A DNA stretch of 40,194 nt from a virus, in the UHGV virus genome UHGV-0127942, one strand, 5' to 3'. The position numbers and the translations under genes were made by a program. The notes under the pieces were generated by a model. It was not told where the DNA came from. It did no database searches and was given only the letters and a program-made list of their open reading frames with translations. Positions 12,810 to 33,327 of the stretch are shown here, piece after piece; the first letter of the stretch is position 1; each line of letters starts with the position of its first letter.

Positions 12810-13140
12810 ATCCCCCGCAGAACGCAAAGCCGCGCAGCGCGCTCGGCAGTCCGCCGCCGGTGAGCGCAAAATTGAATTGGTGCTGGATAAGCAGGAGCAG
12901 GAAATGCTGGCGCGGAACTGCGCCGCCCGGCGCCCTGGTCGCGATCCCTATGAAATGGCCGAGTACATCGCGTTACTGATCCGCCAGGATGATGCACGCG
13001 TGCGCGGGCGTATAAAATCGATTAGCAGAAAACGTTGCGGTAAGTGCGGCGAGAAAGTTCCCGTTAATTCATGCCCGTGTAATGGTGACTCGCAATGCTG
13101 GGTGACTAAAGGCTGGCATGAAACGAAATTAATAGTGTGA
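12793..13140 (+). CDS. Hypothetical zinc-ribbon protein, candidate late regulator
   Basis: 115 aa from a GTG start; KRCGKCGEKVPVNSCPCNGDSQCW Cys cluster; sits immediately upstream of a palindrome and terminator that precede the terminase genes. Confidence 0.4.
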   Translation: MRFVAKSPAERKAAQRARQSAAGERKIELVLDKQEQEMLARNCAARRPGRDPYEMAEYIALLIRQDDARVRGRIKSISRKRCGKCGEKVPVNSCPCNGDSQCWVTKGWHETKLIV

Positions 13141-13148
13141 CATGTCAC
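13137..13148. promoter_or_regulatory. 12-bp perfect palindrome GTGACATGTCAC (copy 1)
   Basis: Overlaps the stop codon of the Zn-ribbon gene; 41 bp upstream of the terminator hairpin that precedes the terminase genes. Confidence 0.5.
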
Positions 13149-13189
13149 GAGTAGATTATGCATGATGAATTTGATGGGTTTTGAATACT

Positions 13190-13215
13190 GCCGCCAACTA
13201 TGGCGGCTTTATTTT
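13190..13215 (+). terminator. Intrinsic terminator upstream of the terminase genes
   Basis: Hairpin GCCGCC-AACTAT-GGCGGC followed by TTTATTTT. Confidence 0.6.
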
Positions 13216-13226
13216 GCATGGTACTA

Positions 13227-13241
13227 TTACCACAACGGTAA
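13227..13241. promoter_or_regulatory. Operator-like palindrome TTACC-N5-GGTAA upstream of terminase small subunit
   Basis: Perfect site between the terminator at 13190-13215 and the terS start; an imperfect copy TTACC-N5-GGTTA follows at 13245-13259. Confidence 0.55.
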
Positions 13242-13258
13242 CTATTACCACGGTGGTT

Positions 13259-13855
13259 ATGATGCCTGCTGAACCTAAAACCTATAAACGCAAATCAACG
13301 CAATTTAAGCCACTAACAGCAATGCAGGAGGCTTATTGCCAGTCATACATCAAAACGCCTGAAAACCAGACTCAGGCAGCGATTAACGCAGGATTCTCCC
13401 CAAATACAGCGGCAGTTAAAGCCAGTGTCATGATGCGCGATGAACGCATTCAAAAACGGATTGCCGAGTTGATGGAGGAGCGCAACAAACGAATGCGCGT
13501 CAGTGCCGATTACGTTCTCATGCGCCTGGTGGAGATCGACCAGATGGACGTGATTGATATCCTCAACGACGATGGGAGCCTTAAGCCAATCCGCGAGTGG
13601 CCGAAAATCTGGCGCACTACGCTTAGTGGCTTTGATCTGTCATCGACCATCATGAACATGAACGAGGATTCGATAGAGACAATCCTCAAAAAAATTAAAT
13701 GGCCTGACAAGGTGAAGAACCTCGAACTGATTGGTAAGCACGTCGACGTCAACGCATTCAAAGAACGCCTGGATGTTAATGTGAATGTGACAATTGCTGA
13801 TCGCATAGCGGCAGCCAGGAAGCGACTCAAAGAACGTCAGGATGGTAATCAGTGA
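13259..13855 (+). CDS. Terminase small subunit
   Basis: Directly upstream of and overlapping the large terminase gene; start moved to 13259 because an intrinsic terminator hairpin (13190-13215) lies inside the longer ORF-track version. Confidence 0.6.
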   Translation: MMPAEPKTYKRKSTQFKPLTAMQEAYCQSYIKTPENQTQAAINAGFSPNTAAVKASVMMRDERIQKRIAELMEERNKRMRVSADYVLMRLVEIDQMDVIDILNDDGSLKPIREWPKIWRTTLSGFDLSSTIMNMNEDSIETILKKIKWPDKVKNLELIGKHVDVNAFKERLDVNVNVTIADRIAAARKRLKERQDGNQ

Positions 13856-15327
13856 CAGATACAGCGTTATCTCCTGAAGAGCAGTTGATCGAGGATATTG
13901 CAGGGTTCACTCACGATCCGCTTGGCTATGCCCTCTATGCGTTCCCGTGGGGGGAAGAGGGGACTGAACTGGCACATGCTACCGGCCCACGTCAGTGGCA
14001 GGCTGATGCGTTCCGAGAGATACGTGATCACCTGCAGAATCCAGAGACGCGCTATCAGCCGCTTATGCTGGCACGCGCTTCTGGTCACGGTATTGGTAAA
14101 TCCGCATTCATCTCAATGCTGATCAACTGGGGCATGTCCACTTGCGAGGATTGTAAGATCGTGGTGACCGCCAACACCGACAACCAGCTACGAACGAAGA
14201 CCTGGCCGGAAATTATCAAGTGGTCGAACCTTGCTATCACGAAAGACTGGTTTACCTGTACCGCTACCGCGATGTACAGCAATGATCTTGGACACGACAA
14301 GCGGTGGCGAGCTGACGCAATCCCCTGGTCTGAGCACAACACTGAGGCATTCGCCGGACTACACAACGAGCGCAAACGCATCATCGTGGTATTCGATGAA
14401 GCGTCGAACATTGCGGATCTGGTGTGGGAAGTTGCTGAGGGTGCGCTTACGGACGAAGACACTGAGATTATCTGGGTGGCGTTCGGAAACCCTACACGTA
14501 ACACCGGGCGTTTCCGCGAATGTTTCCGCAAATATAAACACCGCTGGAAAACTGCGCAGATTGACAGCCGGACGGTGGAAGGCACTAACAAACAGCAGTT
14601 GCAGAAATGGGTTGATGACTACGGGGAAGACAGCGACTTCGTTAAAATCCGTGTGCGCGGCATATTCCCTGATGCATCTGAATTGCAGTTTATCCCTACC
14701 GGTCTTACTGATGAGGCAATGAAACGGGTGGTAACCGCTGCGCAGGTGGCGCATGCTCCGGTGATAATCGGTGTTGACCCGGCATACTCAGGCGTTGATG
14801 ACGCGGTGATATACCTGCGGCAGGGGCTGCACAGTAAGGTGCTATGGACTGGTAACAAGACCACCGACGATCTGATTATGGCGAAGCGTATCGCTGACTT
14901 TGAAGACCAGTACCAGGCTGACGCGGTGTTCATCGACTTCGGTTACGGTACCGGTCTGAAGTCAATCGGTGACGGTTGGGGGCGTACATGGCAACTTGTT
15001 CCGTTCGGTGGCGCGTCTACTGACCCGCAGATGCTCAACAAGCGTGGGGAGATGTTCAATTCATGCAAGACATGGCTGAGGCTCGGCGGCATGCTGGATG
15101 ACCAGGAAACTGCAGACGACCTGTCGGCGGCAGAGTACAAAGTTCGCGTGGACGGTAAAATCGTTATCGAACCGAAGGAAGATATCAAGGAGCGGCTTGG
15201 GCGTTCTCCGGGTAAAGGCGATGCGCTACTGCTGACGTTTGCTTTCCCTGTGTCGAAGCGTCTGCGAATTCCCGGGCAGCAGAACCAGCAAGGCAAGGCC
15301 ATCACAGATTACGATCCCTATGCTTAA
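13852..15327 (+). CDS. Terminase large subunit
   Basis: 491 aa; Walker A-like ARASGHGIGKS ATPase motif and C-terminal nuclease-like region; GTG start overlapping the small subunit stop. Confidence 0.85.
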   Translation: MTDTALSPEEQLIEDIAGFTHDPLGYALYAFPWGEEGTELAHATGPRQWQADAFREIRDHLQNPETRYQPLMLARASGHGIGKSAFISMLINWGMSTCEDCKIVVTANTDNQLRTKTWPEIIKWSNLAITKDWFTCTATAMYSNDLGHDKRWRADAIPWSEHNTEAFAGLHNERKRIIVVFDEASNIADLVWEVAEGALTDEDTEIIWVAFGNPTRNTGRFRECFRKYKHRWKTAQIDSRTVEGTNKQQLQKWVDDYGEDSDFVKIRVRGIFPDASELQFIPTGLTDEAMKRVVTAAQVAHAPVIIGVDPAYSGVDDAVIYLRQGLHSKVLWTGNKTTDDLIMAKRIADFEDQYQADAVFIDFGYGTGLKSIGDGWGRTWQLVPFGGASTDPQMLNKRGEMFNSCKTWLRLGGMLDDQETADDLSAAEYKVRVDGKIVIEPKEDIKERLGRSPGKGDALLLTFAFPVSKRLRIPGQQNQQGKAITDYDPYA

Positions 15328-15370
15328 TCCGCTGGTGGGGATAATACTGCTGATATCCTCTGATGAGGAT

Positions 15371-15397
15371 AAAACAAAGCCAGCTCATCGGCTGGCT
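15371..15397 (-). terminator. Bidirectional intrinsic terminator between terminase large subunit and the reverse moron gene
   Basis: Hairpin AGCCAGC-TCATCG-GCTGGCT with an A-run on one side and a T-rich stretch on the other. Confidence 0.55.
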
Positions 15398-15401
15398 GTT
15401 T

Positions 15402-15413
15402 GTGACATGTCAC
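15402..15413. promoter_or_regulatory. 12-bp perfect palindrome GTGACATGTCAC (copy 2)
   Basis: Immediately after the bidirectional terminator hairpin at 15371-15397; 5 nt from the stop of the minus-strand gene 15418-15789. Confidence 0.5.
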
Positions 15414-15417
15414 GGTG

Positions 15418-15789
15418 TTATTGCTCGCTTAACTTCTGCTTCAGCAAGTAACCTTCGAGCATCCAGATTTTGTTTACAGCATTCTGCCGGGCAATCTTCC
15501 GACCAATTTCTGCATCAAAATTTTCCGGACTTGCACAGGAACTCTCTCCGGTGACGGTGAAGCCGTTGCGCAGCACCAGGACGCAGAACGTCAGCAGAGA
15601 AAGTGATTCGTGCGGCTGGTAGTTTACCTCTCCGCCAGTATGTTTCGCTTTTATGGCTTTGCCAAAGGCACCATCTTCTGCTGTGAAATATGCCTCCTGA
15701 GCAATAATGCCTTCGATATGGTCTGGCGTAACGCGCGGTGCCGTTTTGCCTTTCTCAACGATTTCTTTTTCGATTTGCTGGTCGTTCAT
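15418..15789 (-). CDS. Hypothetical protein (reverse-oriented moron)
   Basis: 123-aa minus-strand ORF inside an otherwise plus-strand late region; RBS AAGGTGAG; intrinsic terminators at both ends. Confidence 0.55.
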   Translation of the reverse strand: MNDQQIEKEIVEKGKTAPRVTPDHIEGIIAQEAYFTAEDGAFGKAIKAKHTGGEVNYQPHESLSLLTFCVLVLRNGFTVTGESSCASPENFDAEIGRKIARQNAVNKIWMLEGYLLKQKLSEQ

Positions 15790-15800
15790 AATCTCACCTT

Positions 15801-15824
15801 AAAAAAATGCCCGGCGAACCGGGC
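15801..15824 (-). terminator. Intrinsic terminator between tRNA-Arg and the reverse moron gene
   Basis: Hairpin GCCCGG-CGAA-CCGGGC with a 7-nt A-run on the plus strand (T-run on the minus strand) abutting the RBS of the gene at 15789. Confidence 0.55.
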
Positions 15825-15987
15825 GAACTGGAAGCAATGAGTTATGCCTTCCGTGGCTGTACTGGTTTACAGCATGAAGTCATCGCAATGGCGTCCTGCT
15901 GTAAAAAGAGCGGTGATAGTCCTTCAAGGGAAACCATCACCGCCAAGCCCCTGGAACTTCTGGCATCACGGTCCTTAGGCGTGATTC

Positions 15988-16064
15988 TGGCGTGGTATGC
16001 AGGATTCGAACCTGCGACCAACCGCTTAGAAGGCGGTTGGTCTGTCCAACTGAGCTAATACCAC
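15988..16064 (-). tRNA. tRNA-Arg (anticodon UCU)
   Basis: Reverse complement reads GTGGTAT...anticodon stem-loop ACCGC-CTTCTAA-GCGGT...T-arm GCAGGTTCGAATCCTGC...ACCACG-CCA; architecture close to E. coli argU; D-arm pairing looks imperfect. Confidence 0.75.
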
Positions 16065-16386
16065 AACGCTGAGAGCACTTAGCCTGTTAAGGCGCCACAC
16101 TTTGTCGCGGCTCCATAAATGCTCTCATCGTTGTACCCTCGTCTCTTCCGAGGCGTCACACCGAATCGCCGGGATGGTGAATCCCCGTGCGCGGAATAAA
16201 ACCGCTCGACTTGCACATTCCGGCTACCTGGTTCGTTTGCTCGAGCAAGGGAGGGTGCCCCTTAAACGTATCCAGACCGCTATCGGCGCATGTGCCATAC
16301 GCCGTACTGCTCAAAATAAAAGCTCACTCCACCTGTTCAATTTAACGACAAGCCAGTCAGGTTAATAACCGGAATGAACTCTTTGC

Positions 16387-16401
16387 TTACCTGAAAGGTA
16401 A
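16387..16401. promoter_or_regulatory. Operator-like palindrome TTACC-N5-GGTAA upstream of the head-gene operon
   Basis: Perfect site 44 bp upstream of a TATGTGGTT element and about 90 bp upstream of the gp6.7-like gene. Confidence 0.55.
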
Positions 16402-16444
16402 TAATTCGTGCGTTAAATGTCAACCATCTACGATAAATAAATCA

Positions 16445-16466
16445 TATGTGGTTAAATTGGTAATAA
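16445..16466 (+). promoter_or_regulatory. Candidate late promoter: TATGTGGTT-N6-TAATAA
   Basis: Conserved element 6 bp upstream of a -10-like hexamer; no good -35; upstream of the gp6.7-like and portal genes. Confidence 0.4.
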
Positions 16467-16491
16467 TTTAATTGCGTACGGAGTCATTGAT

Positions 16492-16698
16492 ATGTGCATG
16501 GGTAGCTCACCATCAGTGCCTGCAACACCAGAAGTTCAGGCAGCACCACAGGAGCAGGATGCCGCCGTTGTTGATGCCCGCGACGAAGAAACACGTCGCC
16601 GTCGCGCTGCTGCTGGTCGTAGTTCTACGCTGCTTACCGGTTCTCAGGGCGACACATCAACCGCTAATACCAGCGGTAAAACGCTGCTTGGTCAGTAA
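16492..16698 (+). CDS. Small virion protein, T7 gp6.7-like
   Basis: 68 aa, low complexity, starts MC..SP like T7 gp6.7 (MCFSPK...) and sits just before the portal gene. Confidence 0.45.
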   Translation: MCMGSSPSVPATPEVQAAPQEQDAAVVDARDEETRRRRAAAGRSSTLLTGSQGDTSTANTSGKTLLGQ

Positions 16699-16712
16699 CC
16701 GGAGTCATTGAA

Positions 16713-18392
16713 ATGGCGGAAACAACTAAAGAGCGATTGAACAAACAGTTCGCACAACTTGAAAGCGAGCGTCAGTCGTTCGAGCCGCACTGGCGCGAGT
16801 TGAGTGATTACATCAACCCGCGTGGTTCCCGCTTTCTGACTTCTGAGGTCAACCGTAACGATCGACGCAATACACGCATTATTGATTCGACCGGGACTAT
16901 GGCGGCGCGCACTCTCGCCAGCGGCATGATGTCAGGCATCACAAGCCCCGCGCGTCCGTGGTTTCGCCTGGCTACGCCAGATCCTGAAATGATGGATTAT
17001 GGCCCTGTTAAGTTGTGGCTTGAGGCGGTGCAGAACCGCATGAACGATATGTTCAATAAGTCGAATCTCTATCAGTCGCTGCCGCAGTTATACGGAAGCC
17101 TCGGCACATACAGCACCGGTGCAATGGCGGTACTGGAGGATGACGAGGACATCATTCGCACAATGCCATTCCCGATAGGCAGTTACTACCTGGCTAACTC
17201 ACCTCGTGGCAGTGTGGACACCTGTTTTCGCAAGTTCTCTATGACTGTTCGTCAGCTTGTTCAGGAGTTCGGGCTAAATAACGTCAGCGAATCCGTAAAA
17301 AGCATGTGGGAAAGCGGTACCTACGAGAAGTGGATTGAAGTGATGCATTCGGTTTACCCGAACATTGACCGCGATACATCGAAGCTGGATAGCAAGAACA
17401 AGCCATTCAAATCGGTTTATTACGAGGTTGGTGGCGATAACGACAAGTTGTTGCGTGAGTCAGGATTCGATGAGTTTCCAATTATGGCTCCGCGCTGGGA
17501 AGTTAACGGCGAAGATGTTTATGGATCATCATGCCCGGGTATGCTGGCGCTTGGACCTGTTAAGGCATTGCAGCTTCTCCAGAAGCGCAAGTCGCAGTTG
17601 ATTGATAAAGCCACCAATCCGCCGATGGTTGCTCCGACTTCCCTCAAGAATCAGCGCGCCTCCCTTCTTCCTGGCGACATCACGTATATCGATCAGATTA
17701 CTGGTCAGGATGGTTTCAGGCCTGCTTATCTGGTTAACCCTAGTACAGCAGATCTGGTGGCAGACATTCAGGACACTCGCCAAATCATTAACAGCGCCTA
17801 CTTTGTCGATCTGTTCATGATGTTGCAGAACATCAATACCCGCTCGATGCCTGTTGAAGCGGTGATCGAAATGAAAGAAGAAAAACTTCTGATGTTGGGG
17901 CCGGTTCTGGAGCGTCTGAACGACGAATGTCTTAATCCTCTCATTGACCGCGCTTTCTCGATGATGGTGCGTAAAAACATGCTGCCGCCACCGCCTGACG
18001 CGATGGAAGGTATGCCCCTGAAGGTCGAATACATTTCTGTCATGGCTCAGGCGCAGAAGTCTATCGGCCTGTCCAGTCTGGCGTCCACGGTTAACTTCAT
18101 TGGTCAACTTGCGCAAGCGAAACCAGAAGCTCTCGACAAACTCAACGTTGATCAGGCGATCGATGCATTCGCTGATATGTCCGGAGTGTCTCCAACCGTC
18201 ATTGTTCCGCAGGAACAGGTTGAGCAGGCTCGCCAGCAACGGGCACAGCAACAACAGCAGCAACAAATGATGGCGATGGGGATGGCGGCGGCACAGGGTG
18301 CCAAGACGCTAAGCGAAGCTAAAACTTCGGATCCGAGTGTTTTGTCAGCTATGGCGAATGCAGTTAGTGGTCAGGGTGGGCAATCACAATGA
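16713..18392 (+). CDS. Portal (head-to-tail connector) protein, T7 gp8-like
   Basis: 559 aa; C-terminal QQRAQQQQQQQMMAMGMAAAQGA tail resembles the T7 gp8 C-terminus (QQKMAQQSMQMGMDNGAAALAQGMAAQA) as I recall it. Confidence 0.8.
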   Translation: MAETTKERLNKQFAQLESERQSFEPHWRELSDYINPRGSRFLTSEVNRNDRRNTRIIDSTGTMAARTLASGMMSGITSPARPWFRLATPDPEMMDYGPVKLWLEAVQNRMNDMFNKSNLYQSLPQLYGSLGTYSTGAMAVLEDDEDIIRTMPFPIGSYYLANSPRGSVDTCFRKFSMTVRQLVQEFGLNNVSESVKSMWESGTYEKWIEVMHSVYPNIDRDTSKLDSKNKPFKSVYYEVGGDNDKLLRESGFDEFPIMAPRWEVNGEDVYGSSCPGMLALGPVKALQLLQKRKSQLIDKATNPPMVAPTSLKNQRASLLPGDITYIDQITGQDGFRPAYLVNPSTADLVADIQDTRQIINSAYFVDLFMMLQNINTRSMPVEAVIEMKEEKLLMLGPVLERLNDECLNPLIDRAFSMMVRKNMLPPPPDAMEGMPLKVEYISVMAQAQKSIGLSSLASTVNFIGQLAQAKPEALDKLNVDQAIDAFADMSGVSPTVIVPQEQVEQARQQRAQQQQQQQMMAMGMAAAQGAKTLSEAKTSDPSVLSAMANAVSGQGGQSQ

Positions 18393-18685
18393 CAGATTAC
18401 GAAGACGATCAACTGAAAGAAGAAAACACCCGTAAGCAACGTGACATGGCACAGCGTGAAATTGATGACATTCGCTTTGTCATGAGCAGTGAACAGGGGC
18501 GTCGCGTTGTCTGGTCTGTGCTGGAGAAAGGCCGGGTGTTTTCCGCTATCTCTCCGATGGATGCTATGGCAATGGCATTTAATGAGGGGCAACGCAATCT
18601 GGCGCTGGAACTGTTTCAGCGCGTTATGGCGCATTGCCCTGAACAGTATTTGAAGATGGCCAAAGAGGCCAGTGAACAGGAGTGA
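18389..18685 (+). CDS. Hypothetical protein
   Basis: 98 aa; ATGA overlap with portal. Confidence 0.5.
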   Translation: MTDYEDDQLKEENTRKQRDMAQREIDDIRFVMSSEQGRRVVWSVLEKGRVFSAISPMDAMAMAFNEGQRNLALELFQRVMAHCPEQYLKMAKEASEQE

Positions 18686-18687
18686 TC

Positions 18688-19383
18688 ATGAATTTATTTG
18701 AGCGTTTGCTGTATCGCCGTCTTTGCAATGAGCAACCAGTCGATGGTGGAGCAGCTCCGGCTGCGTCAGAACCGTCAGCGCCTGCAGGTGATAACCCTGC
18801 TCCAGTTGGTGATCCATCACAACAGGAAGGTGATAAGCCACAACCTGTTGCTGATGGCGATAAACCTGCTGATGACAAAAAGCCTGAAAACGATAAGCAG
18901 GATGAAAAAAAGGACGGCGATAAACCAGAGGGTGCGCCTGAGAAGTACGAGTTTCAGGCTGCCGAAGGCGTAGAGCTGGATACAGAAGCGTTGAAGGAAT
19001 TCGAGCCGGTGGCGCGAGAACTTAACCTGACCAACGAGCAAGCGCAAAAGCTGGTTGATGCTTATCCGAAGATTCTGGCAGGTGTTCAGCAGCGCCAGGC
19101 AGAAGCCTGGCAGAAAACAACCGAGCAGTGGGCTGCGGATGTAAAAGCTGACAAAGAAATCGGTGGCGACAAGTTGATTTCTAACCTTAGCGCCGCACAG
19201 CGTGCGCTTGACCAGTTCGGGACACCTGAACTCAAAGAATATCTGAACACCACCGGGCTGGGTAATCACCCTGATCTGGTCAAAACGTTCGTGAAAATCG
19301 GAAAGGCGATGTCTGAAGATGGCATGGTCACCGGTGGTAATGAAGGCCAGCGTAGTGCGGCCGAAGTGCTCTATGGCAAATAA
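18688..19383 (+). CDS. Scaffolding protein (putative)
   Basis: Acidic, low-complexity N-terminal half and coiled-coil-like C-terminal half, between portal and capsid genes; ATG at 18688 after AGGAG. Confidence 0.55.
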   Translation: MNLFERLLYRRLCNEQPVDGGAAPAASEPSAPAGDNPAPVGDPSQQEGDKPQPVADGDKPADDKKPENDKQDEKKDGDKPEGAPEKYEFQAAEGVELDTEALKEFEPVARELNLTNEQAQKLVDAYPKILAGVQQRQAEAWQKTTEQWAADVKADKEIGGDKLISNLSAAQRALDQFGTPELKEYLNTTGLGNHPDLVKTFVKIGKAMSEDGMVTGGNEGQRSAAEVLYGK

Positions 19384-19391
19384 GAGAGGAA

Positions 19392-20384
19392 ATGACAATG
19401 GCTGTTAAAGGCTTAACTGCGCTAACGCTGGCTGACTGGGGTAAGCGCGTCGATCCAAACGGGAAAGTCGATAAGATTATCGAGCTTCTCGGTCAAACTA
19501 ACCCGATCCTTCAGGATATGCCTTTTGTCGAAGGGAACCTTCCTACCGGACACCGAACCACCATTCGTTCTGGTTTACCTTCAGCTACCTGGCGTTTGCT
19601 GAACTATGGCGTACAGCCAAGCAAATCAACAACGGTGCAGGTCACTGATTCCATTGGCATGCTGGAAACCTATGCTGAAGTCGATAAGTCACTGGCTGAT
19701 CTGAACGGCAATACCGCCGAATTCCGCCTGTCTGAAGACCGCGCATTTATTGAAGCGATGAATCAGCAGATGGCGCAGACGCTGTTTTATGGTGATTCCA
19801 GCGTTAACCCTCAGCAGTTTATGGGACTGTCCTCCCGCTATTCCAGCCTGTCTGCGGGTAATGCTCAGAACATCATTGATGCTGGTGGCACGGGTACAGA
19901 TAACACCTCAATCTGGTTAGTGGTGTGGGGCGAAAACACCGTGCATGGCATCTTCCCGAAAGGGCAGAAGGCTGGCATCCAGATGGAAGATAAAGGCCAG
20001 GTGACACTGGAAGATGCTGATGGCGGCAAGTACGAAGGCTATCGCACCCATTATAAATGGGATAACGGACTTGCTCTGCGTGACTGGCGTTATGTTGTTC
20101 GCATTGCAAACATCGATGTCAGCAATCTTTCAGAACCTTCCTCTGCCGCAAATATTGCGAAGTTGATGGTTAAAGCACTGCATCGCATTCCAAACCGTGG
20201 CATGGGCCGCCCGGTGTTCTACATGAACCGCACTGTAGGCCAGGCTCTTGATCTGCAATCTCTGGAGAAAACATCTCTGGCGATCAGCGTAAAAGAGACA
20301 GAAGGCGAGTGGTGGACTTCATTCCGTGGTGTACCAATCCGTGAAACTGATGCGCTTCTGGAAACAGAAGCCCGCGTGGTGTAA
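19392..20384 (+). CDS. Major capsid protein
   Basis: 330 aa immediately after the scaffold gene, strong RBS, followed by a stem-loop; position and size typical of a major capsid protein. Confidence 0.7.
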   Translation: MTMAVKGLTALTLADWGKRVDPNGKVDKIIELLGQTNPILQDMPFVEGNLPTGHRTTIRSGLPSATWRLLNYGVQPSKSTTVQVTDSIGMLETYAEVDKSLADLNGNTAEFRLSEDRAFIEAMNQQMAQTLFYGDSSVNPQQFMGLSSRYSSLSAGNAQNIIDAGGTGTDNTSIWLVVWGENTVHGIFPKGQKAGIQMEDKGQVTLEDADGGKYEGYRTHYKWDNGLALRDWRYVVRIANIDVSNLSEPSSAANIAKLMVKALHRIPNRGMGRPVFYMNRTVGQALDLQSLEKTSLAISVKETEGEWWTSFRGVPIRETDALLETEARVV

Positions 20385-20435
20385 CGCCTGTTATTAACCT
20401 GTGGGTCGTAACAGACCCACTAATGGAGAAAGAAG

Positions 20436-20873: not shown

Positions 20874-20874
20874 G

Positions 20875-21219: not shown

Positions 21220-21236
21220 GCCTCGCGAATCCGACA

Positions 21237-21257
21237 AGGGGCTTCGGCCCCTTTATT
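21237..21257 (+). terminator. Intrinsic terminator within the head/tail operon
   Basis: Hairpin AGGGGC-TTCG-GCCCCT followed by TTATT. Confidence 0.5.
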
Positions 21258-21263
21258 GCAGGA

Positions 21264-25133: not shown

Positions 25134-25678
25134 TGTGCGATCCGGTTATTGCTGGTGGCGCAATGCTCGCCATGAGTGGCATTCAGGCATACACCCAGTA
25201 CCAACAGGGAAAGTATGCCTCGAAGGTTGCAGAAGCGAACGCAGATATAGCCACTGCTCAGGCAAATGATGCAATAAACAGAGGTAACGCTGAAGCTGAG
25301 CAACGGCGCAGAGAGACCCGACAGCGGCTTGGTACACAGGCGGCGACAATGGGGGCTACCGGCGCTGATTTATCTACAGGTAACGCGCTGGATATATTTG
25401 ACGACACTGCCCAGTTTGGCGCTCTTGATTCGCTGACGACGGTGAATAACGCGCAACGCGAGGCTTACGGTTATCAGGTTCAGGCTGCCAACTATAAAGC
25501 AGAAGCCAGTTCAGCCCGTAAACAGGGGAATGTGGGAGCAGCAACAACATTGCTCACTGCGCCTCTGAAGGCATACGGTGCGTACCAGATGTTTGGTGGG
25601 ACGTGGAGTCCGTTTACTCAAAGCACTCCTGCGCCAATCGGGGCAGCAGCAGGAACCAGATTACCCGGAGGATTATAA
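25133..25678 (+). CDS. Internal virion protein (gp14-position)
   Basis: 181 aa, Ala/Gln-rich; assigned by order and size. Confidence 0.45.
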   Translation: MCDPVIAGGAMLAMSGIQAYTQYQQGKYASKVAEANADIATAQANDAINRGNAEAEQRRRETRQRLGTQAATMGATGADLSTGNALDIFDDTAQFGALDSLTTVNNAQREAYGYQVQAANYKAEASSARKQGNVGAATTLLTAPLKAYGAYQMFGGTWSPFTQSTPAPIGAAAGTRLPGGL

Positions 25679-28191
25679 TGCCAGTCGTACCAACAGTATC
25701 CGGACGTCAGGTTGAGAGCCGTGGAGTTCAGTCAGCAGGCTTGCAGACGTTTTCTCAGCCAGGTATTGGTGATGCTTTTGTTCTGGCAGGGGCAGAGACT
25801 ATTGATGTTTTTGGTCAGGCAAAACAGCGTGCCAATATCGCTCTGGCTCAGGAGGCATCTCTTAACCTCAGTCAGATAAGCAGCGATCTGCTGAATAACC
25901 CTGAAACAGGGTTGCTTAACCTGAAAGGGAAAAATGCTATTGGAAAAGGCCATGAGTATACGCAGCAGTTTGATGCTCAGGTCGAACAACTGGCTATGTC
26001 GCTGCCGGATGAACAGGCTCGTAATACTTTCATGCAGCAGGCGCAGCAGCAGCGCATTCAGTTCACTACGCAGGCCGGGCGGCACGAGATAGGGCAAATA
26101 AACGCCTACGAAGAAGGCCAGTTTCAGTCTACGCTGCTGAACAATGGTAAAAATGCCGCAGCATTGTATGGCGACAACGCCGCATACGTATTGGCTAATA
26201 AGCAAACTTTCCAGCAAATTGAGGATTACGGCATTGCGCATGGCTGGAGCGACGAGCAAATCCAGGCCAAGAAAGTCGAGTTTAAAGAGAAGGTTGCTGA
26301 TGCCGCATTGTCCCAGTGGTCGGCAAACAATGCGACCGCATTCATCCAAAGTAATGGCGAGTTAAGTGATACTGCTGCTGGAGCTCGCCGTGCTGTAGCA
26401 GATAGTGACTCTTCCGAGCGTGCCCGTGGCATACGCAACAATAACCCAGGAAATCTCGAATACAGCAAAACTAATCCGTGGGTAGGCCAGACCGGTGATG
26501 ATGGTCGATTTGCTAAATTCGAAACACCTGAACACGGGATTCGTGCATTAGGGCGAAACCTGATGTCGTATCAGAGGCAGGGTATTGATACCGTCAGCGA
26601 GATAATTAATCGCTGGGCACCGCCTACTGATAAAAATGACACTATGTCGTATATCAAAGCAGTGTGCGAACAACTTGGCGTTTCTGCTGATGAGCCTCTC
26701 GATGCATCTAATCCTGATACCCTGAAGGCGCTTTGTGCAGCCATTATCCATCATGAGAACGGTAGCCAGCCATACAGTGATCAGCAGTTAACTGCTGGTG
26801 TCAGTGCAGCACTTGGTTTATCAACAATTCCAACCAACACCAAACGCTATACCGGTAATGCAGCATTCGATGCGGCATCTCCTGAGGCGCAGGCAAGTTT
26901 TATGCGACAGGCGGATCAACTGCGTCGGCAGCAGCAGGCTGAATATAAAACGATGATTGACAGCCAGGTTCGCGATGCGACAGCTGCGTATATGCGTGGC
27001 GTTGAATTTCCTAACCCACCTGGTGAGGCTGATTTTATTGCAGCTTATGGAGTCAGAGAAGGAAACCTGCGATATACCGAGTTCAGAAATACGCAAATCG
27101 CCGGACAGTATATAGGCTCTTTCCGCAACATGCCGACAAGCAGCATTACAGCATATGTTGAGCAATTACGCCCGGATACTGGTGAGACAGGGGAGGGTTA
27201 TGCGGCACGAGCCGCTCTTTATGACAACGTTGTGTCGGCTGCAAGTCAGGTGATAAAGCAGCGACAGGCTGATCCTGTACAGTTCTCTCTTGCCGCCGGA
27301 CAGGCAAAGCCTATCGACATGAGCAATAAGGATAACTTTGGACAGAGCGTTGCCTTGCGTGCTGCTCAGGTCAGTGACCTTGCTAAGTCATATGGCACTC
27401 CACTGACGTTCTTTTCCAAAGACGAGGCCAATCAGATCGGTGTTTTCTTTCGTGATGCGCCCGTTTCCCAACAGGCAGCATATCTCGATACCATCAGGCA
27501 GAGCACTGGTGGTGGGCAGGTGTATATGTCAGCACTACAGCAGATCAGTGCCAACGCTCCATCTGCTGCCGTTGCCGGGATACTGATGGATAAGCCAGGT
27601 GGTATTTTGGCAGAAAAAAACTGGTTTAATCCGGATGTTTCCGTGTCTCCTGAAACCGCTGCGCAGACAATTCTTGCTGGCGCGGCGGCTCGTAAAGGTA
27701 CTGATGACGCGAAAGGTATTCCGATGCCTAAAGATGCTGATCTCCGCCTTGAGTTTTCTGACATGGTGAAGGATGCATTTGCTGGTGATGCTCAGGGGGC
27801 ATCAATGGCATACGAGATCGCAAAGGACTATTACGCAGGTGTGATGGCGAAAAAAGGCGTGGTATCAGGCGAAATTGACAATGATATCTGGAAACAGGCT
27901 GTTAACGTAGCTACAGGTGGCGTGCATGACTATAACGGAATGGGGAATGTTCTTTTGCCGTGGGGAATGTCTGCAGAGCAATTCGATAAGCAGGTTAATC
28001 AGGCTTGGAATGAACAAGTTGTTGGCACAGGGATAAAAACACCGCCTGGTCAGTATGGTTTGCAAAGTTACGGCGATAGTCAGTACCTGGTGAAACTTGG
28101 TACTGGTTATCTGCTAAAAGATGATGGTTCTCCCGTTGTTCTTGATCTGACACAGAAGCGTCAGAGATTCTCCGGAGATATTCCGCAATGA
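25678..28191 (+). CDS. Internal virion / ejection protein (gp15-position)
   Basis: 837 aa from the ATG at 25678; contains a conserved-looking stretch IRNNNPGNLEY...WAPP of unknown function. Confidence 0.55.
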   Translation: MPVVPTVSGRQVESRGVQSAGLQTFSQPGIGDAFVLAGAETIDVFGQAKQRANIALAQEASLNLSQISSDLLNNPETGLLNLKGKNAIGKGHEYTQQFDAQVEQLAMSLPDEQARNTFMQQAQQQRIQFTTQAGRHEIGQINAYEEGQFQSTLLNNGKNAAALYGDNAAYVLANKQTFQQIEDYGIAHGWSDEQIQAKKVEFKEKVADAALSQWSANNATAFIQSNGELSDTAAGARRAVADSDSSERARGIRNNNPGNLEYSKTNPWVGQTGDDGRFAKFETPEHGIRALGRNLMSYQRQGIDTVSEIINRWAPPTDKNDTMSYIKAVCEQLGVSADEPLDASNPDTLKALCAAIIHHENGSQPYSDQQLTAGVSAALGLSTIPTNTKRYTGNAAFDAASPEAQASFMRQADQLRRQQQAEYKTMIDSQVRDATAAYMRGVEFPNPPGEADFIAAYGVREGNLRYTEFRNTQIAGQYIGSFRNMPTSSITAYVEQLRPDTGETGEGYAARAALYDNVVSAASQVIKQRQADPVQFSLAAGQAKPIDMSNKDNFGQSVALRAAQVSDLAKSYGTPLTFFSKDEANQIGVFFRDAPVSQQAAYLDTIRQSTGGGQVYMSALQQISANAPSAAVAGILMDKPGGILAEKNWFNPDVSVSPETAAQTILAGAAARKGTDDAKGIPMPKDADLRLEFSDMVKDAFAGDAQGASMAYEIAKDYYAGVMAKKGVVSGEIDNDIWKQAVNVATGGVHDYNGMGNVLLPWGMSAEQFDKQVNQAWNEQVVGTGIKTPPGQYGLQSYGDSQYLVKLGTGYLLKDDGSPVVLDLTQKRQRFSGDIPQ

Positions 28192-29990
28192 GTTACTTTG
28201 GCCTTAATCCAGTAAACCAGAATCAGCAGCTTGACGAAGCAGCATCAAATCCAGCGGGCTTTAACAGCGATGTTGGTTTTTTCGACAATGCTGTAGGAGC
28301 GGCATTGTCTGGTTTGTACTCCGGGCTGGTGGCAAAGCCAGACCAGTTGCTATGGGCAGGAATGGATAAAATCGTATCCCCGATTGCTCAGTTTGTTAAC
28401 GAAAACACCTCGTTCAATGATACTTCAGTTTCATACATTGCCGAGCAGAGAAAACTAGCAGAGCAGCAGGTTAAGCGGCTGACGCCTGATGCGGCGACAA
28501 CCGGAACCGCCGGGCAGGTCCTTTATGGGTTGTTCGATATGGGCGGGCAGGCTGTTGTCGGTACAACGCTCGGTGGTCCGGTCGGAGGTGCTGCGGCGGT
28601 AACTTCGCTACAGGGTTTTTCTGAGTTTGAACGGCTGACAGCACAGGGTGTTGATTTCAGGACGGCGCAGGAAGCGGGATTAGTGCAGGGTATTACTGCT
28701 GGTGCCGGAACACTGATCCCTATGAGCCTCGGGTTACGTGCTGGTGGTGCGCTGGCGGAAGGTGTGGCGGCTCAGCTTGCGCGGACGGGTGAAAGTTCAG
28801 TGCGACGCGCCGCAGCAACAGCAGTACGTGCAACGCCAGATATTGCCTATGCCGCAGGTACAAATATTGCGTTCGGTATGGCACAGCGTGGGCTTACTGC
28901 AAAAACGCTTCGTGATGGTGGCTATAGCGAAATGGCTAACCAGTATGATGTGTTGGATCGACAGGCAATTGCTATTGATGCTGTTCTTGGGGTGGCGTTT
29001 GGTGGTGTCGGCAGATTTATTAACTCTCGCGGCGAGTCTACAAACGCACCAAATTTTTCACCAGTTGATGTCGATGCTGCACTGGCGGCGAATGCCGCTC
29101 ATCATGCTGAAATTGATATTGCTCCCGGCGTCCCGATCAACGTGCTTTCGCGCAATTCTCACATTCAGGCTCTGCGAAAAGCCATGTCTGATGTTAGCCA
29201 GGGGAGGCCTGTAGACGTTGCCAGCATTGTTGAGTCTGCATCTTTCAGTGAAATTCCTGGGCGCAAGAGTCTGCTGTCTCAGGCAGTTAATGAGGCTCTG
29301 TCATCTGTAGATGATGGAGTAACGGCGCGCGCTATAGAAAATCGGTTGCTTGAAGAACAGGCTGCGCAGCTTTTGCCGCGTGGCGATAGACAGGTTTACC
29401 AGTCTGAAATCGCTAATAGCCAACGAATTATTGAAAATCTCACTGAACAGCGCGCACAAATTCTTGCAGAAGAGCCAACCGGTAGCGGTAAGGCTTTATC
29501 TCGTGCTCGATCAGATAAACAGGCCAGACTTCGCGATATTGACCAACGAATCCGGCAGGCACAAGAACGCCTGGAATTTTCCCGTAACGCGTTGGCACCG
29601 CATGAGCCTGGCGGTCAGTTTTTTGAAGCTCGAGCAGAACTGGCACGGCGACAACAGGCAGAAAGTGAACTTAATGCTCAGGCTGTTTCATTCTATAAAA
29701 CAGCAGAGGTCAGGACGCCAGACGAAGTAGCTCCTTTTGAGCCCGGTAAGATATTGCAACAGGCAGAACAAAAGATGATGGCAGATCCGGCAGGAGATAT
29801 TGATCTGCGCATAGCTGAAGACTCGCTGCTTGAATCACCTGACATGATAATCACCGTGCTGGATGATGATGGTAATCCACAATCGCGCAGTGCGCGTGAA
29901 GTACTGGATGAAGCGAACATGGAAAGTGAGCAGGCAATACAGGATTCCAGCCTGTTTGATGTCGCTGTGGCGTGTTTCTTGAGAGGTTAA
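28188..29990 (+). CDS. Internal virion / ejection protein
   Basis: 600 aa, Gly/Ala-rich N-terminal region; ATGA overlap with upstream gene. Confidence 0.5.
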   Translation: MSYFGLNPVNQNQQLDEAASNPAGFNSDVGFFDNAVGAALSGLYSGLVAKPDQLLWAGMDKIVSPIAQFVNENTSFNDTSVSYIAEQRKLAEQQVKRLTPDAATTGTAGQVLYGLFDMGGQAVVGTTLGGPVGGAAAVTSLQGFSEFERLTAQGVDFRTAQEAGLVQGITAGAGTLIPMSLGLRAGGALAEGVAAQLARTGESSVRRAAATAVRATPDIAYAAGTNIAFGMAQRGLTAKTLRDGGYSEMANQYDVLDRQAIAIDAVLGVAFGGVGRFINSRGESTNAPNFSPVDVDAALAANAAHHAEIDIAPGVPINVLSRNSHIQALRKAMSDVSQGRPVDVASIVESASFSEIPGRKSLLSQAVNEALSSVDDGVTARAIENRLLEEQAAQLLPRGDRQVYQSEIANSQRIIENLTEQRAQILAEEPTGSGKALSRARSDKQARLRDIDQRIRQAQERLEFSRNALAPHEPGGQFFEARAELARRQQAESELNAQAVSFYKTAEVRTPDEVAPFEPGKILQQAEQKMMADPAGDIDLRIAEDSLLESPDMIITVLDDDGNPQSRSAREVLDEANMESEQAIQDSSLFDVAVACFLRG

Positions 29991-29995
29991 ATTAA

Positions 29996-32470
29996 ATGAG
30001 ACAGGAATGTATACAAGCGGTTCAGCAGGCGGCGCAGCGCACGTTAACGGCGCGAGAAATACAGAACATTGAAGACCGCATTTATCGAAATATGCGCTCC
30101 ATTGCTCGTGATGACCCGATGTCGTGGAGACAACTTTCCGAATCAGAGCGGCTATATCGAGCAGCACAATTGGCATCTGAAGAATTACAGCGAGAAGCGG
30201 CATTAAAGAAACGTCGTGTGGCCCTCACTATAGCCGCACGTCAGAGATTGGATAAATTTATCAATAGCTATCAAGGGGCTGATGGGAAACTTGGCGCTCT
30301 TAACCGTACTATTGCTTTTAATGCAGACGGTAAATCGAATTTCCTCTCTGTTGAGTCCAGAACAAAAGCCACTCGTGATTATGCATTGAGTCAATTGCAG
30401 GAGGCATTTGAAGCAGTTGATCCTCGCTTTTTTGGCCTGTTTGAAGATGAAGCTGGCGTGCGTGATCTGGTATATGAAATGCGAGGGCAAAATACTGGCA
30501 ATGCTAAAGCAAGAAAAGGTGCTAAGGCGTGGAGAGAAGTTACAGAGCTGCTGCGCCGCCGGTTTAATGATGCTGGTGGGGACATTGGCTATCTCGAAAA
30601 CTGGGGGATCCCTCAACATCATTCTATGGAAAAGGTTGGGGCGGTATCAAAAGATAAATGGGTTAGCGATGTTATAGGTAAGCTGGATCGCAAATATTAT
30701 ACCCGAGCCGATGGACAACTGATGAACGATGCCGAGTTGTCTGCATTTCTTGGAGAGGCTTATAACACGATCGCTACTGGTGGGCTGAATAAGCTTACTG
30801 ATACCGGAATGCGAATTTCCGGCGCACGTGCTAACCGTGGTAATGCATCACGACAGATACATTTCAAAGATGCAGATTCCTATCTGCAATATCAGCAACT
30901 TTATGGCGATCGCTCTCTATGGGAAATCATGGTCGGTCACCTTGAAGGTATCAGTAAAGATATTGCACTGGTGGAAACATATGGCCCAAACCCCGATCAT
31001 GTTTTCCGCTCTCTTCTTGATCAGGTGAAGGCAGAAACGGCAACAGCTAACCCGAGTAAAACCGGTAAAGTCGAGCGGCTGGCGAACAACACAGAGAATC
31101 TGTACAACTTTATTTCCGGAAAGACACAGCCTGTAGCGAATCCGCACATCGCGCGATGGTCTGACAATATCCGCAACTGGCTGGTTGCCAGCAGACTCGG
31201 ATCCGCGTTGCTGTCATCGTTCTCTGATCTTGGAACCATGTATCTGTCTGCGAAGGTTACCAACCTTCCAATGAACCAGTTATTCCGCAACCAGCTTGAA
31301 GCTATGGACCCAACGAACCGTACAGAACTTGCGCGGGCGCGCCGCGCTGGTCTGGCGATGGAATCTCTACTTGGCAGCGTTAACCGCTGGGCGATGGATA
31401 ATATGGGGCCGTCTGTGTCTCGTTGGGCGGCAACGGCGGTAATGCGTGCCAGTGGGCTTACAGCATGGTCAGATGCGCACAAGCGCGCCTATGGCGTAAC
31501 CATGATTGGAAGCCTGGGAGAAGTAGTGTCACGGACACCAGACCTTCGTAGCCTCGATAATTCTGATTTTCGTATCCTGAAAAGCAAAGGGATTACTGAC
31601 ACAGACTGGAGCGTATGGAAGCTGGCGCAACAGGAGGACTGGGGGAACGGCAATAATACGATGCTGACACCGGAAAGCATTATGCGTATCCCTGATTCAG
31701 CAGTTAAACATCTTGGTGAGCCTGAACGCGTGAAATTTGAGGCAATGCGTAAACTGCTCGGTGCCGTAACTGAAGAAGTTGATATGGCTGTTATTACACC
31801 GGGAGCACGTGAGCAACTGATAACCGGTTCTGGTATTCAGCGTGGAACATGGAAAGGTGAATTAACGAGAAGTGTTTTCCTGTTTAAATCGTTCCCTATC
31901 TCGGTGGTTATGCGTCACTGGTCACGCGCTATGGGTATGCCGTCTGCTGGTGGGCGTGCGGCATATATTGCGACGTTTATTGCCAGTACGACCATTCTTG
32001 GCGCTTTGTCGCAGCAACTTAACGACCTTGCGTCTGGTCGTAATCCTCGCGAGATGACAGGAGAAGATGCTGCTAAATTTTGGCTTGGTGCTCTACTGAA
32101 AGGTGGTGGTCTTGGCCTTTACGGTGACTTTTTATTGTCAGATCACACTAGGTACGGAAGCGGCGCGCTGGCGTCGATGCTTGGCCCGGTAGCTGGTCTG
32201 GTTGATGACGTAGTGAAGATTGCTCAGGGCATACCGTTAAATGCTGTGGAAGGGAAGAGTGAGCAGACTGGTGGTGATCTGGTGAAGCTGGGGAAAGGTT
32301 TGATGCCAGGTGCGAATCTCTGGTACTTAAAGGCGGCTCTCGATCATATGATCTTTAACCAGATGCAGGAGTATTTTTCACCAGGCTATTTGCGTAAAAT
32401 GGAGCAACGTTCGAAGAAAGAGTTTAATCAGACATACTGGTGGCGACCTCAGGATGTCACTCCGCAATAA
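29996..32470 (+). CDS. Internal virion / ejection protein (gp16-position)
   Basis: 824 aa; together with the preceding gene occupies the position of T7 gp16. Confidence 0.5.
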   Translation: MRQECIQAVQQAAQRTLTAREIQNIEDRIYRNMRSIARDDPMSWRQLSESERLYRAAQLASEELQREAALKKRRVALTIAARQRLDKFINSYQGADGKLGALNRTIAFNADGKSNFLSVESRTKATRDYALSQLQEAFEAVDPRFFGLFEDEAGVRDLVYEMRGQNTGNAKARKGAKAWREVTELLRRRFNDAGGDIGYLENWGIPQHHSMEKVGAVSKDKWVSDVIGKLDRKYYTRADGQLMNDAELSAFLGEAYNTIATGGLNKLTDTGMRISGARANRGNASRQIHFKDADSYLQYQQLYGDRSLWEIMVGHLEGISKDIALVETYGPNPDHVFRSLLDQVKAETATANPSKTGKVERLANNTENLYNFISGKTQPVANPHIARWSDNIRNWLVASRLGSALLSSFSDLGTMYLSAKVTNLPMNQLFRNQLEAMDPTNRTELARARRAGLAMESLLGSVNRWAMDNMGPSVSRWAATAVMRASGLTAWSDAHKRAYGVTMIGSLGEVVSRTPDLRSLDNSDFRILKSKGITDTDWSVWKLAQQEDWGNGNNTMLTPESIMRIPDSAVKHLGEPERVKFEAMRKLLGAVTEEVDMAVITPGAREQLITGSGIQRGTWKGELTRSVFLFKSFPISVVMRHWSRAMGMPSAGGRAAYIATFIASTTILGALSQQLNDLASGRNPREMTGEDAAKFWLGALLKGGGLGLYGDFLLSDHTRYGSGALASMLGPVAGLVDDVVKIAQGIPLNAVEGKSEQTGGDLVKLGKGLMPGANLWYLKAALDHMIFNQMQEYFSPGYLRKMEQRSKKEFNQTYWWRPQDVTPQ

Positions 32471-32479
32471 GGAAGTGTT

Positions 32480-32649
32480 GTGTTTTTAATTATTTTGAGT
32501 GTGATAATTTCTGGTGGGTTGTTATTTATTGACCGCTACAAATATTTTCTTAACCCTCAGACTCAAGCTATTTGCTGGTTCATCTTTGTTGTGCAGGGAA
32601 TAGTTCTTGTTGCAAGCCTTATTGAGGGGAGGCCTCTGATTTTTACTGG
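32480..32649 (+). CDS. Possible small hydrophobic protein (about 57 aa)
   Basis: Not in the ORF track; GTG at 32480 five nt after AAGGAAG; product VFLIILSVIISGGLLFIDRY... is strongly hydrophobic. Confidence 0.25.
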
Positions 32650-32665
32650 GTAAATAGGTGACTAC

Positions 32666-32956
32666 ATGCAAGCTATAGGATTCATTGTTTATATCGTCGT
32701 TGGTCTTTTTCAGTTGGCAGCAATTATGGCTGGGCTTGAATCATGGTGGGGATTGCACTGGATAATTGCAGCCCCCATTGCTTTCATCGTGAGCTATATT
32801 CCATTTGTTGGAGCGATTGTTGGTATGGTTGGTGCTGTGGATGTATGGCGGTGGGAGTGGTGGCAGGCTGGCCTTCTCTTCTTTGGTGGGATCATCTTTG
32901 CTATTGTCTGCGGTGGAATGTCATCATTTTTCGAACGGCTATCATTCAGAAAATGA
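32666..32956 (+). CDS. Small integral membrane protein
   Basis: 96 aa with several predicted transmembrane stretches (IVYIVVGLFQLAAIMAGL..., IAAPIAFIVSYIPFVGAIVGMVGAV...); followed by a palindrome and a terminator. Confidence 0.5.
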   Translation: MQAIGFIVYIVVGLFQLAAIMAGLESWWGLHWIIAAPIAFIVSYIPFVGAIVGMVGAVDVWRWEWWQAGLLFFGGIIFAIVCGGMSSFFERLSFRK

Positions 32957-32958
32957 AC

Positions 32959-32970
32959 GTGACATGTCAC
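32959..32970. promoter_or_regulatory. 12-bp perfect palindrome GTGACATGTCAC (copy 3)
   Basis: 3 nt after the stop of the membrane-protein gene and directly abutting the terminator hairpin at 32971-32995. Confidence 0.5.
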
Positions 32971-33290: not shown

Positions 33291-33327
33291 TCAAATAATT
33301 TGTTTGCTATCCAGCACGTTTTGCAAA

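Follow-up and report, generated by a model that had tools for sequence, protein, structure and literature searches.

A phage-encoded ribbon-helix-helix/zinc-ribbon protein as candidate binder of a 12-bp palindrome at gene ends in an epsilon15-like prophage

The virus genome UHGV-0127942, a stretch of 40,194 bp that was analyzed at full length and is called the window here, contains the 12-bp palindrome GTGACATGTCAC exactly three times, and the question arises which molecule recognizes this sequence and what its binding brings about. The window represents a prophage of E. coli that belongs to the epsilon15/phiV10-like group (Uetakevirus) and matches a chromosomal segment of E. coli 2017.18.02CC at 99.9% identity. 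Its terminase region shares 94 to 98% identity with phiV10-type phages and about 80% with Salmonella phage epsilon15. Sequence comparisons indicate that the 12-mer is probably the operator of a 112-amino-acid protein encoded at 12802-13140 (plus strand), whose reading frame ends within one of the copies. This protein corresponds to epsilon15 gp49 and phiV10 p55, which the records of these relatives annotate as "transcriptional regulator, similar to N15 gp46", and belongs to one family with N15 gp46 (phrog_536). The assignment is based on the co-occurrence of gene and site and on the fit of an invariant basic helix of the protein to the invariant half-sites of the palindrome.

The three copies are located at 13137-13148, 15402-15413, and 32959-32970. 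The chance expectation for a 12-mer in the window is 40,194/4^12 = 0.0024, and none of 100 dinucleotide-preserving shuffles contained any match. Copy 1 includes the TGA stop codon (13138-13140) of the gene for the 112-residue protein and lies 41 bp upstream of a terminator at 13190-13207 (plus strand; a 7-bp stem with 6 GC pairs and a T-run), which ends the early, nin-like unit and precedes the operators of the prophage repressor (Rep operators) and terS. Copy 2 is found 4 bp from the hairpin at 15378-15397 and 4 bp from the stop codon of the reverse gene 15418-15789, a gp50-like moron of the Phage_gp49_66 family. This hairpin has its T-run on the minus strand and ends the reverse gene, with copy 2 upstream of it for leftward transcription; on the plus strand it follows terL and possesses a poor U-tract only. 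Copy 3 starts 2 nucleotides past the stop codon of the open reading frame (ORF) 32666-32956 and abuts the hairpin at 32971-32988 (plus strand, with T-run), which ends the long virion-gene unit and separates copy 3 from the 3' end of a reverse ant-like gene (32994-33251). All three hairpins are intrinsic terminators with 5 to 6 GC pairs and a T-run each, and their RNA folds reach energies between -15 and -22 kcal/mol (z-scores from -2.3 to -2.9). The polarity is uniform along the gene that ends (plus, minus, and plus, respectively): stop codon, 12-mer, 0 to 41 bp, hairpin, and T-run. The 12-mers mark the three boundaries between successive late units, and strong terminators elsewhere in the window (6873 and 5861) lack the motif. 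The original prediction had reported three perfect copies, each beside an intrinsic terminator, with a chance expectation of about 0.002, one copy 41 bp before its terminator, one beside a bidirectional hairpin, and one directly before 32971; exact search and terminator scan agree with it on the number of copies and on their geometry. A copy with one mismatch, GTGACATGGCAC, is present at 18441-18452 inside a virion gene, and phiV10 carries this variant at the corresponding position. A GTGAC-N5-GTCAC sequence at 9805, inside a gene, was treated as a chance occurrence.

The three copies in the window share the 12-mer only, and the same was observed for relatives. Seven Uetakevirus genomes were picked by terminase similarity and not by the motif, namely, epsilon15, SPN1S, Tyrion, phiV10, BUCT554, Kp4865-1, and BUCT711, the hosts of which are E. 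coli, Salmonella, Enterobacter, and Klebsiella. With few exceptions, the exact 12-mer was found at the three equivalent places of these genomes, in flanks that diverge to about 80% identity. The exceptions are single mismatches in copy 1 of phiV10 and of BUCT554, the absence of copy 3 from Kp4865-1, and the absence of copy 2 from BUCT711. The earlier statement that the 12-mer alone is conserved and its flanks differ therefore holds within the window and among its relatives, and the absence from conserved junctions of related phages that had been named as a possible refutation was not encountered. Some Uetakeviruses carry additional elements. An extra exact GTGACATGTCAC was detected at the same place inside the internal-virion-protein gene of two Klebsiella phages (L005 at 24674 and L007 at 26462), with no counterpart in the window. 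Directly after copy 1, a LexA-box promoter, tactgtttaaatatacagta, is present in Klebsiella and Citrobacter relatives (L005 at 12709-12770, L289, L290, and L296); in L005 and L007 it is followed by an extra small gene, which is inserted between the regulator gene and terS.

A clear link between the palindrome and the gene that ends in it emerges from loci gathered via the protein only. Two scans of IMG/VR and one scan of one genome per species gave 206 loci of distinct context (3.1 Mb), with homologues down to about 30% identity. A GTGAC-NN-GTCAC site was found within -50 to +60 nucleotides of the stop codon of the homologue in 113 of these 206 loci, compared with about 0.02 expected. It begins one base before the stop codon (offset -1) in 82 of the 113 cases and is located at -48 to +15 in all but two. 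The spacer between the half-sites is 2 bp in all 113, and no other spacer length was detected near the stop codon in the 206 loci. Elsewhere in these loci, 112 further sites with a 2-bp spacer are present, where about 3 are expected. In N15, the end of gp46 reads G-TGA-CTGGTCAC, and this 12-mer is found twice more in the phage, at 28550 and at 33237, the latter inside repA. Another example is the Yersinia P2-like gp13, the last gene of an early operon, with GTGACGCGTCAC over its stop codon. Pectobacterium phage ZF40 has the exact GTGACATGTCAC 2 nucleotides after the stop codon of gp22 and contains it twice more, within a cII-like gene and within a PL-operon gene, and Vibrio phage K233 carries GTGACACGTCAC twice, once 19 bp upstream of terS. 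Since the bases past the stop codon (CATGTCAC and variants) are non-coding, the conservation of the site is not due to coding constraint. Homologues were identified in Uetakeviruses and in P2-like, lambdoid, N15-like, and Vibrio phages. The suggestion that the zinc-ribbon protein, then assigned to 12793-13140, might be the binder is strongly supported by these homologues in unrelated phages with a site at their own stop codon. As for the proposal of a site for a termination or antitermination factor, its first element, a protein-binding site, is well supported. The terminator link is real among the Uetakeviruses and recurs in some distant lineages, but only about 40% of the own-stop sites have a terminator within 60 bp in a count made by eye.

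The gene of the presumed binder starts with the GTG at 12802, the ORF finder placing the start at 12793. No Pfam or NCBIfam family and no sequence relative in the PDB were found for its product, and the family is small, with 151 clusters at 50% identity among 1.8 billion representatives. Its alignment, which extends down to about 30% identity, shows an N-terminal basic helix with nearly invariant R8 and R13, a strand-helix-helix core, and three invariant cysteines in a C-terminal CxxCG...C zinc ribbon. The basic helix is the most conserved segment of the protein. The AlphaFold2 monomer model (predicted local distance difference test score of 68) has an extended segment at residues 19-29 followed by helices at 30-43 and 52-75, and its fold matches are ribbon-helix-helix (RHH) proteins; weak matches to the Pfam families RHH_5, RHH_1, and RepB were obtained for some family members. 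As modelled, the protein has an RHH fold of the CopG/Arc/MetJ type, and it is predicted to form a dimer. A profile search of the PDB found YbiI, of the DksA/TraR C4 type, at E = 0.44 over the helix and the CxxCG..P...C segment; the DksA/TraR finger consists of CxxC-(17)-CxxC after a long helix, and only three cysteines are invariant in the gp49/gp46 family. The "gp46" of the telomere phage NAR688 is the cB repressor and is unrelated to this family.

The recognized object looks like symmetric duplex DNA, not RNA, to judge from the sites themselves, because their centers occur in both orientations and the RNA hairpin is weak. The central dinucleotide varies by lineage (AT, GC, CG, AG, AC, and CA), and asymmetric centers (AGG/CCT and ACG/CGT) were found at own-stop sites in either orientation. 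The predicted RNA hairpin of the 12-mer has an energy of -1.2 kcal/mol, which is no better than that of shuffled sequence, and no alternative pairing with the terminators was seen. A promoter was considered as well, because GTGACA resembles a -35 element and a scanner flagged GTGACA-18-CATGAT and GTGACA-18-AATGAT; epsilon15-type copies show GTGACA-17-TAAATT. This candidate was set aside, since no enrichment of -10 elements at 16 to 18 bp was seen over 94 independent site clusters. A small -10 peak at 21 to 22 bp is due in part to related P2-like loci and to ribosome-binding sites. An activation of the terS promoter in class I mode was rejected as well: the site center is at about -91 in the window and at about -75 in epsilon15, and the helical phase is not conserved. 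The "repressor" sites of epsilon15 have a different motif, ATTACC-N5-GGTAAT.

Several further occurrences of the site, or of sequences close to it, were noted in the wider set. Exact 12-mers in IMG/VR contigs with no gp49 homologue in the fetched stretch were left uncounted, many of them being located in homologous coding sequences; examples are the start of Q82/P22-gp23-type genes and one recurring coding-like context. A Q82/P22-gp23-type antiterminator gene has the exact 12-mer over its codons 2 to 5 (MRDMSQ) in L076 (at 1238) and also in L014, L019, L024, L117, and L126. In L076, a gp49 homologue with an own-stop site is encoded 12 kb away, and the 12-mer in the antiterminator gene could be either a real target, for the control of Q, or a coding coincidence. 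At 7622 in ZF40 (L288), the exact 12-mer lies in the 3' part of the cII-like gene and encodes (C/R)DMS(Q/H). A homologous coding context was found in five IMG/VR contigs (L023, L032, L039, L058, and L121), of which L032 and L039 also encode a gp49 homologue, and divergent copies of it use the same codons for serine and aspartate. Two near-sites in inverted order, GTGTCCGGTCAC-N8-10-GTGACCGGACAC, occur about 25 bp past the stop codon of the homologue in L145, L147, L162, L165 to L167, L170, and L190. They form the stem of an apparent operon terminator hairpin, each arm being one base, which prevents self-pairing, away from a perfect site. In the P2-like L259 (10860-10935) and its relatives L258, L275, and L281, one perfect site and two degenerate ones form an array with a spacing of about 31 bp, each of them beside ATTTTAAT; in L259 the array is placed between the presumed cos region and the portal-gene terminator, with a -10-like TAAAAT 15 to 16 bp from the perfect site.

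What binding brings about is less certain than what binds. The effect tentatively favored is roadblock or boundary control combined with autoregulation, rather than antitermination. A dimer of the protein would bind each GTGAC-NN-GTCAC, its conserved N-terminal basic helices reading the invariant GTGAC half-sites and its RHH beta-ribbon lying over the loosely specified central bases. As the last product of the early, repressor-controlled unit, the protein would appear only after induction and would then occupy three unit ends, namely, that of its own unit, the terL/gp50-like junction, and the junction between virion genes and ant. Once bound, the dimer may obstruct transcription as a roadblock or boundary element and thereby back up the neighboring one-directional terminators. 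With copy 1 over its own stop codon, its own mRNA would be truncated, which would result in negative autoregulation; about 104 of the own-gene sites are located at +10 or less, where polymerase would stall before it has transcribed the stop codon. A parallel may be drawn with LacI at O3, the operator at the 3' end of lacI, where a roadblock reportedly leads to truncated mRNA and to tagging by transfer-messenger RNA. By analogy, an operator over the end of its own coding sequence could allow a bound protein to truncate its own message. However, LacI has a helix-turn-helix fold and truncation at O3 is a side effect of a looping operator, whereas here the position at the stop codon is the most conserved feature of the system.

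Across lineages, the gene is usually the last or nearly the last of an early operon, often followed by a terminator. It precedes terS in Uetakeviruses, belongs to the nin region upstream of a Q-like gene in L298, L301, and ZF40, is part of a PL-type operon next to int in L025, and stands at the end of P2-like early operons that converge on portal and terminase genes. Around two thirds of the site clusters are intergenic, with an excess at convergent junctions and many at operon ends, and a third lies inside ORFs, such as the cII-like and PL-operon genes of ZF40, repA of N15, and the virion gene of the Klebsiella phages. Such intragenic sites fit an elongation block and not promoter activation. 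RHH proteins are mostly repressors. A roadblock is favored because of this, because of the intragenic sites and the lack of a fixed promoter geometry, because own-gene sites cluster at the stop codon, and because read-through would be harmful in the P2-like and copy-2 contexts.

An activator is not required either, since the late units carry Rep operators of their own at their 5' ends. The ATTACC-N5-GGTAAT motif has 11 copies with up to two mismatches in the window, where 1 is expected: at 5747, 5809, 6521, 6906, 8852, 8914, 13226, 13244, 16386, and 33327, with an eleventh at 25660. Ten of the 11 are distributed over the immunity region and the 5' ends of all rightward units, those of the late units being 13226/13244, 16386, and 33327 (with the epsilon15 annotation for comparison), which suggests that the late units are under direct control of the prophage repressor. 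An extended -10 element (TGgTACTAT, around 13219-13227) follows the terminator, precedes terS, and overlaps the first Rep operator. Because of these operators and this element, the late units seem to be transcribed from promoters of their own that the repressor controls. With the terS start chosen in phiV10 (equivalent to a TTG at 13181), both the terminator hairpin and the Rep operators would fall within the coding sequence, and the epsilon15-type start (equivalent to an ATG at about 13259-13262) looks more plausible.

Several observations weigh against this account. The pairing of protein and site rests on co-occurrence in sequence, and the structural model is of moderate confidence only. 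The central dinucleotide shows no clean covariation with the residues of the beta-strand, close homologues using AT, AG, or AC, so that the binder might instead be a conserved protein of the host. A roadblock 0 to 41 bp upstream of an efficient intrinsic terminator looks redundant, and one RHH dimer bound to 12 bp might not hold firmly enough to halt RNA polymerase. The layout of regulator gene, site, terminator, and late genes is the classical one of an antiterminator such as lambda Q. Finally, site and hairpin are 0 to 4 bp apart at copies 2 and 3, as they are in a distant lineage, and this spacing, which a simple roadblock does not account for, may mean that the protein acts on the terminator directly; the order of stop codon, site, and hairpin at 0 to 4 bp recurs in a distant lineage with CG centers and in Xenorhabdus.

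These last points lead to antitermination, which we consider possible though unlikely. The same protein at the same sites would have a positive effect: bound to DNA, it would be taken up by RNA polymerase, or act on it, shortly before the terminators, would let it read through them, and would so join the early, terminase, virion, and tailspike/lysis units into late transcripts, antisense across the gp50-like and ant morons. This would be a Q-like function with no promoter-embedded site. The gene is the last of the early unit and is followed by the site, the terminator, and terS; the order of gene, site, and terminator after the own stop codon recurs in L105 and other Enterobacterales prophages, with the downstream gene identified only in L105 (terS). 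All three sites in the window are upstream of a terminator along the gene that ends, two of them abutting the hairpin, and the same order of stop codon, site, and hairpin is seen in the distant lineage. In lambdoid relatives the module precedes the nin-region terminator, upstream of the Q-like gene, and the boundaries marked by the 12-mer are exactly those between successive late units, the terminators of other boundaries lacking the motif. The parallel with lambda Q, its binding element QBE, PR', and tR' includes the position of the regulator gene at the end of the early unit, a DNA site directly downstream, followed by terminator and late genes, and a zinc-binding element in the protein. However, no promoter was found at a fixed distance among the site clusters, several sites are present per genome, some of them inside genes, and the linked protein is half the size, has an RHH fold, and gave no match to Phage_antitermQ or any other Q family. 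Q-type genes coexist with the gp49/gp46 family in ZF40, N15, and L298, which thus possess a separate Q-type protein. Furthermore, the terminator at copy 2 serves leftward transcription, so that read-through would run antisense into terL, and the P2-like module ends an early operon convergent on portal and terminase genes, where read-through would be harmful. The gene of L025 is part of a PL-type operon that adjoins int, the late units seem to possess promoters of their own under Rep control, and we know of no RHH antiterminator.

A bolder proposal, which is doubtful at present, sees in the gp49/gp46 family a new kind of site-specific controller of intrinsic terminators, the DNA-reading head of which may share ancestry with MatP. 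An RHH/zinc-ribbon dimer on duplex DNA 0 to 4 bp upstream of the hairpin, as found in several independent lineages, would decide on termination, and no promoter-embedded loading site would be needed.

An architectural role, in which dimers would bridge or loop phage DNA as MatP does at matS, appears improbable. It could serve genome organization, replication, or packaging, or could interfere with the MatP/matS system of the host. The consensus of matS is GTGACRNYGTCAC, i.e., GTGAC-RNY-GTCAC, with 13 bp and a 3-bp spacer (PMC6907758). The half-sites GTGAC...GTCAC of the phage palindrome are identical to those of matS, the binder has an RHH core preceded by a basic helix in both cases, and the layout in hhalign (basic helix, strand, helix A, and helix B) is colinear with that of the gp49/gp46 family. 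The host range is also the same, the family having been seen only in phages of Enterobacterales, Vibrio, and Aeromonas. These bacteria are hosts with MatP. The heterogeneous positions of the sites among phage types and the two window sites that flank the terminase genes would suit this role too. On the other hand, the phage spacer is 2 bp and never 3 bp in the 113 own-stop sites, and it is 2 bp in the three window copies as well. Comparison by hhalign with E. coli MatP and with a three-sequence MatP alignment detected no homology (probability 0.1, E of about 0.4), the search for MatP homologues having given near-identical sequences only, and no match to PF06303 (MatP) or PF17414 (MatP_C) was found in the family. 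The phage protein has a zinc ribbon instead of the four-helix bundle and coiled coil of MatP, and the system is phage-encoded, with 1 to 4 sites per genome at gene ends. The host range may, moreover, reflect database bias and search patterns. As far as the sequences go, the likeness to matS is a resemblance and not membership.

It is quite improbable that the binder is a conserved protein of the host (MatP, if its spacing were relaxed, or a different factor of Enterobacterales and Vibrio) and that the phage gene merely adjoins the site. The half-sites are identical to those of matS and show no variation between Vibrio phages and E. coli phages, whereas the identity of the phage protein drops to 30%, and the central bases do not follow the protein. 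Nevertheless, a host factor does not account for the close placement of the site at the stop codon of one gene family, which is seen in P2-like, lambdoid, N15-like, Uetakevirus, and Vibrio phages. Such a factor also leaves aside that the most conserved segment of the protein is a basic helix able to read the invariant half-site, and the 3-bp spacer of matS does not agree with it.

Recombination at module boundaries and packaging, both raised in the original prediction, are very unlikely and found no support. The sites do adjoin variable, moron-like genes (the gp50-like gene, the small variable gene after the virion genes, and ant), two of them flank terS-terL, the K233 site is close to terS, and the P2-like array of L259 lies between the presumed cos region and the portal gene. 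However, domain and fold searches detected no recombinase, nuclease, or other catalytic domain in the linked protein, the sites of N15 and ZF40 are far from terminase genes or cos, and sites are also present inside conserved genes. In addition, epsilon15-type terminases resemble the pac-type enzymes of P22, Sf6, and P1 according to record annotations. Terminases of this type package by the headful mechanism from a pac site that is usually inside terS.

An action as RNA, with a small hairpin GUGACAUGUCAC in 3' untranslated regions serving processing, stability, or antitermination, is hardly tenable: all three copies are transcribed as the first nucleotides past a stop codon and have a terminator hairpin beside them, but the hairpin is marginal and does not pair alternatively with the terminators, the palindrome is perfect even in the "loop", asymmetric centers occur in both orientations relative to the gene, and sites are also found inside genes on either strand.

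Two further systems invite comparison with the phage-encoded RHH protein and its operator. Arc and Mnt of P22 share the RHH fold and act in the lytic growth of a genome with an antirepressor gene between virion and tailspike genes. Their operators overlap the ant and mnt promoters, whereas here the sites are at the 3' ends of genes and the ant promoter carries LexA and Rep sites instead of the 12-mer; Arc and Mnt also lack a zinc ribbon and have other operator sequences. The SlmA site, GTGAGTACTCAC, is a 12-bp palindrome with the same outer four bases per side as the 12-mer; the inner four bases differ, SlmA is a helix-turn-helix protein of the TetR family, and no link was found.

Among the neighboring features, the reverse gene 32994-33251 after copy 3 encodes 85 amino acids and is homologous to epsilon15 gp19 (83% in tblastn). 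It is presumably an SOS-controlled antirepressor gene (ant-like), as described for SPC32H-type phages, and is taken as such because a perfect LexA box and a Rep operator precede it. The LexA box, CTGTATATTTATACAG, is located at 33273-33288 and the Rep operator, ATTACCCGAAAGGTAAT, also perfect, at 33327-33343, both between this gene and the tailspike gene. A transfer RNA gene for arginine (anticodon TCT) is present at 15988-16064 on the minus strand, between the gp50-like moron and the head genes. Iteron-like tandem repeats at 7520-7620, consisting of cccgaaaacgggaatata twice and cccaaaaacgggatgttgaatgat twice, are found within the replication-initiator gene 7218-8033 and are probably the phage origin; the minus-strand terminators called at these repeats were rejected as an error of the terminator scanner.

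A literature search returned no paper with the 12-mer, the genome paper of epsilon15 lying outside its scope, and the public records contain no annotation of the motif. The comparisons turn a "hypothetical transcriptional regulator" into a defined candidate pair of protein and operator. Pairs of transcription factor and operator are themselves well known; this one is set apart by the uncharacterized family, the unusual placement of the operator, and the matS-like half-sites. The family is present in temperate phages of enteric bacteria, Vibrio, and Aeromonas, including epsilon15-like, P2-like, lambdoid, and N15-like phages. Its operator is unusual in being placed over the stop codon of the regulator and beside terminators, not at a promoter, which suggests either a roadblock and autoregulation device or a new route to terminator control. 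This bears on the timing of late genes in phages of the epsilon15/phiV10 type, which are used as reporter and biocontrol phages. Furthermore, given the matS-like half-sites, one may ask whether relatives of the MatP/matS system of the host, or mimics of it, exist in phages, and if a shared ancestry with MatP were true, cross-talk of temperate phages with the Ter/matS system of their hosts would be possible.

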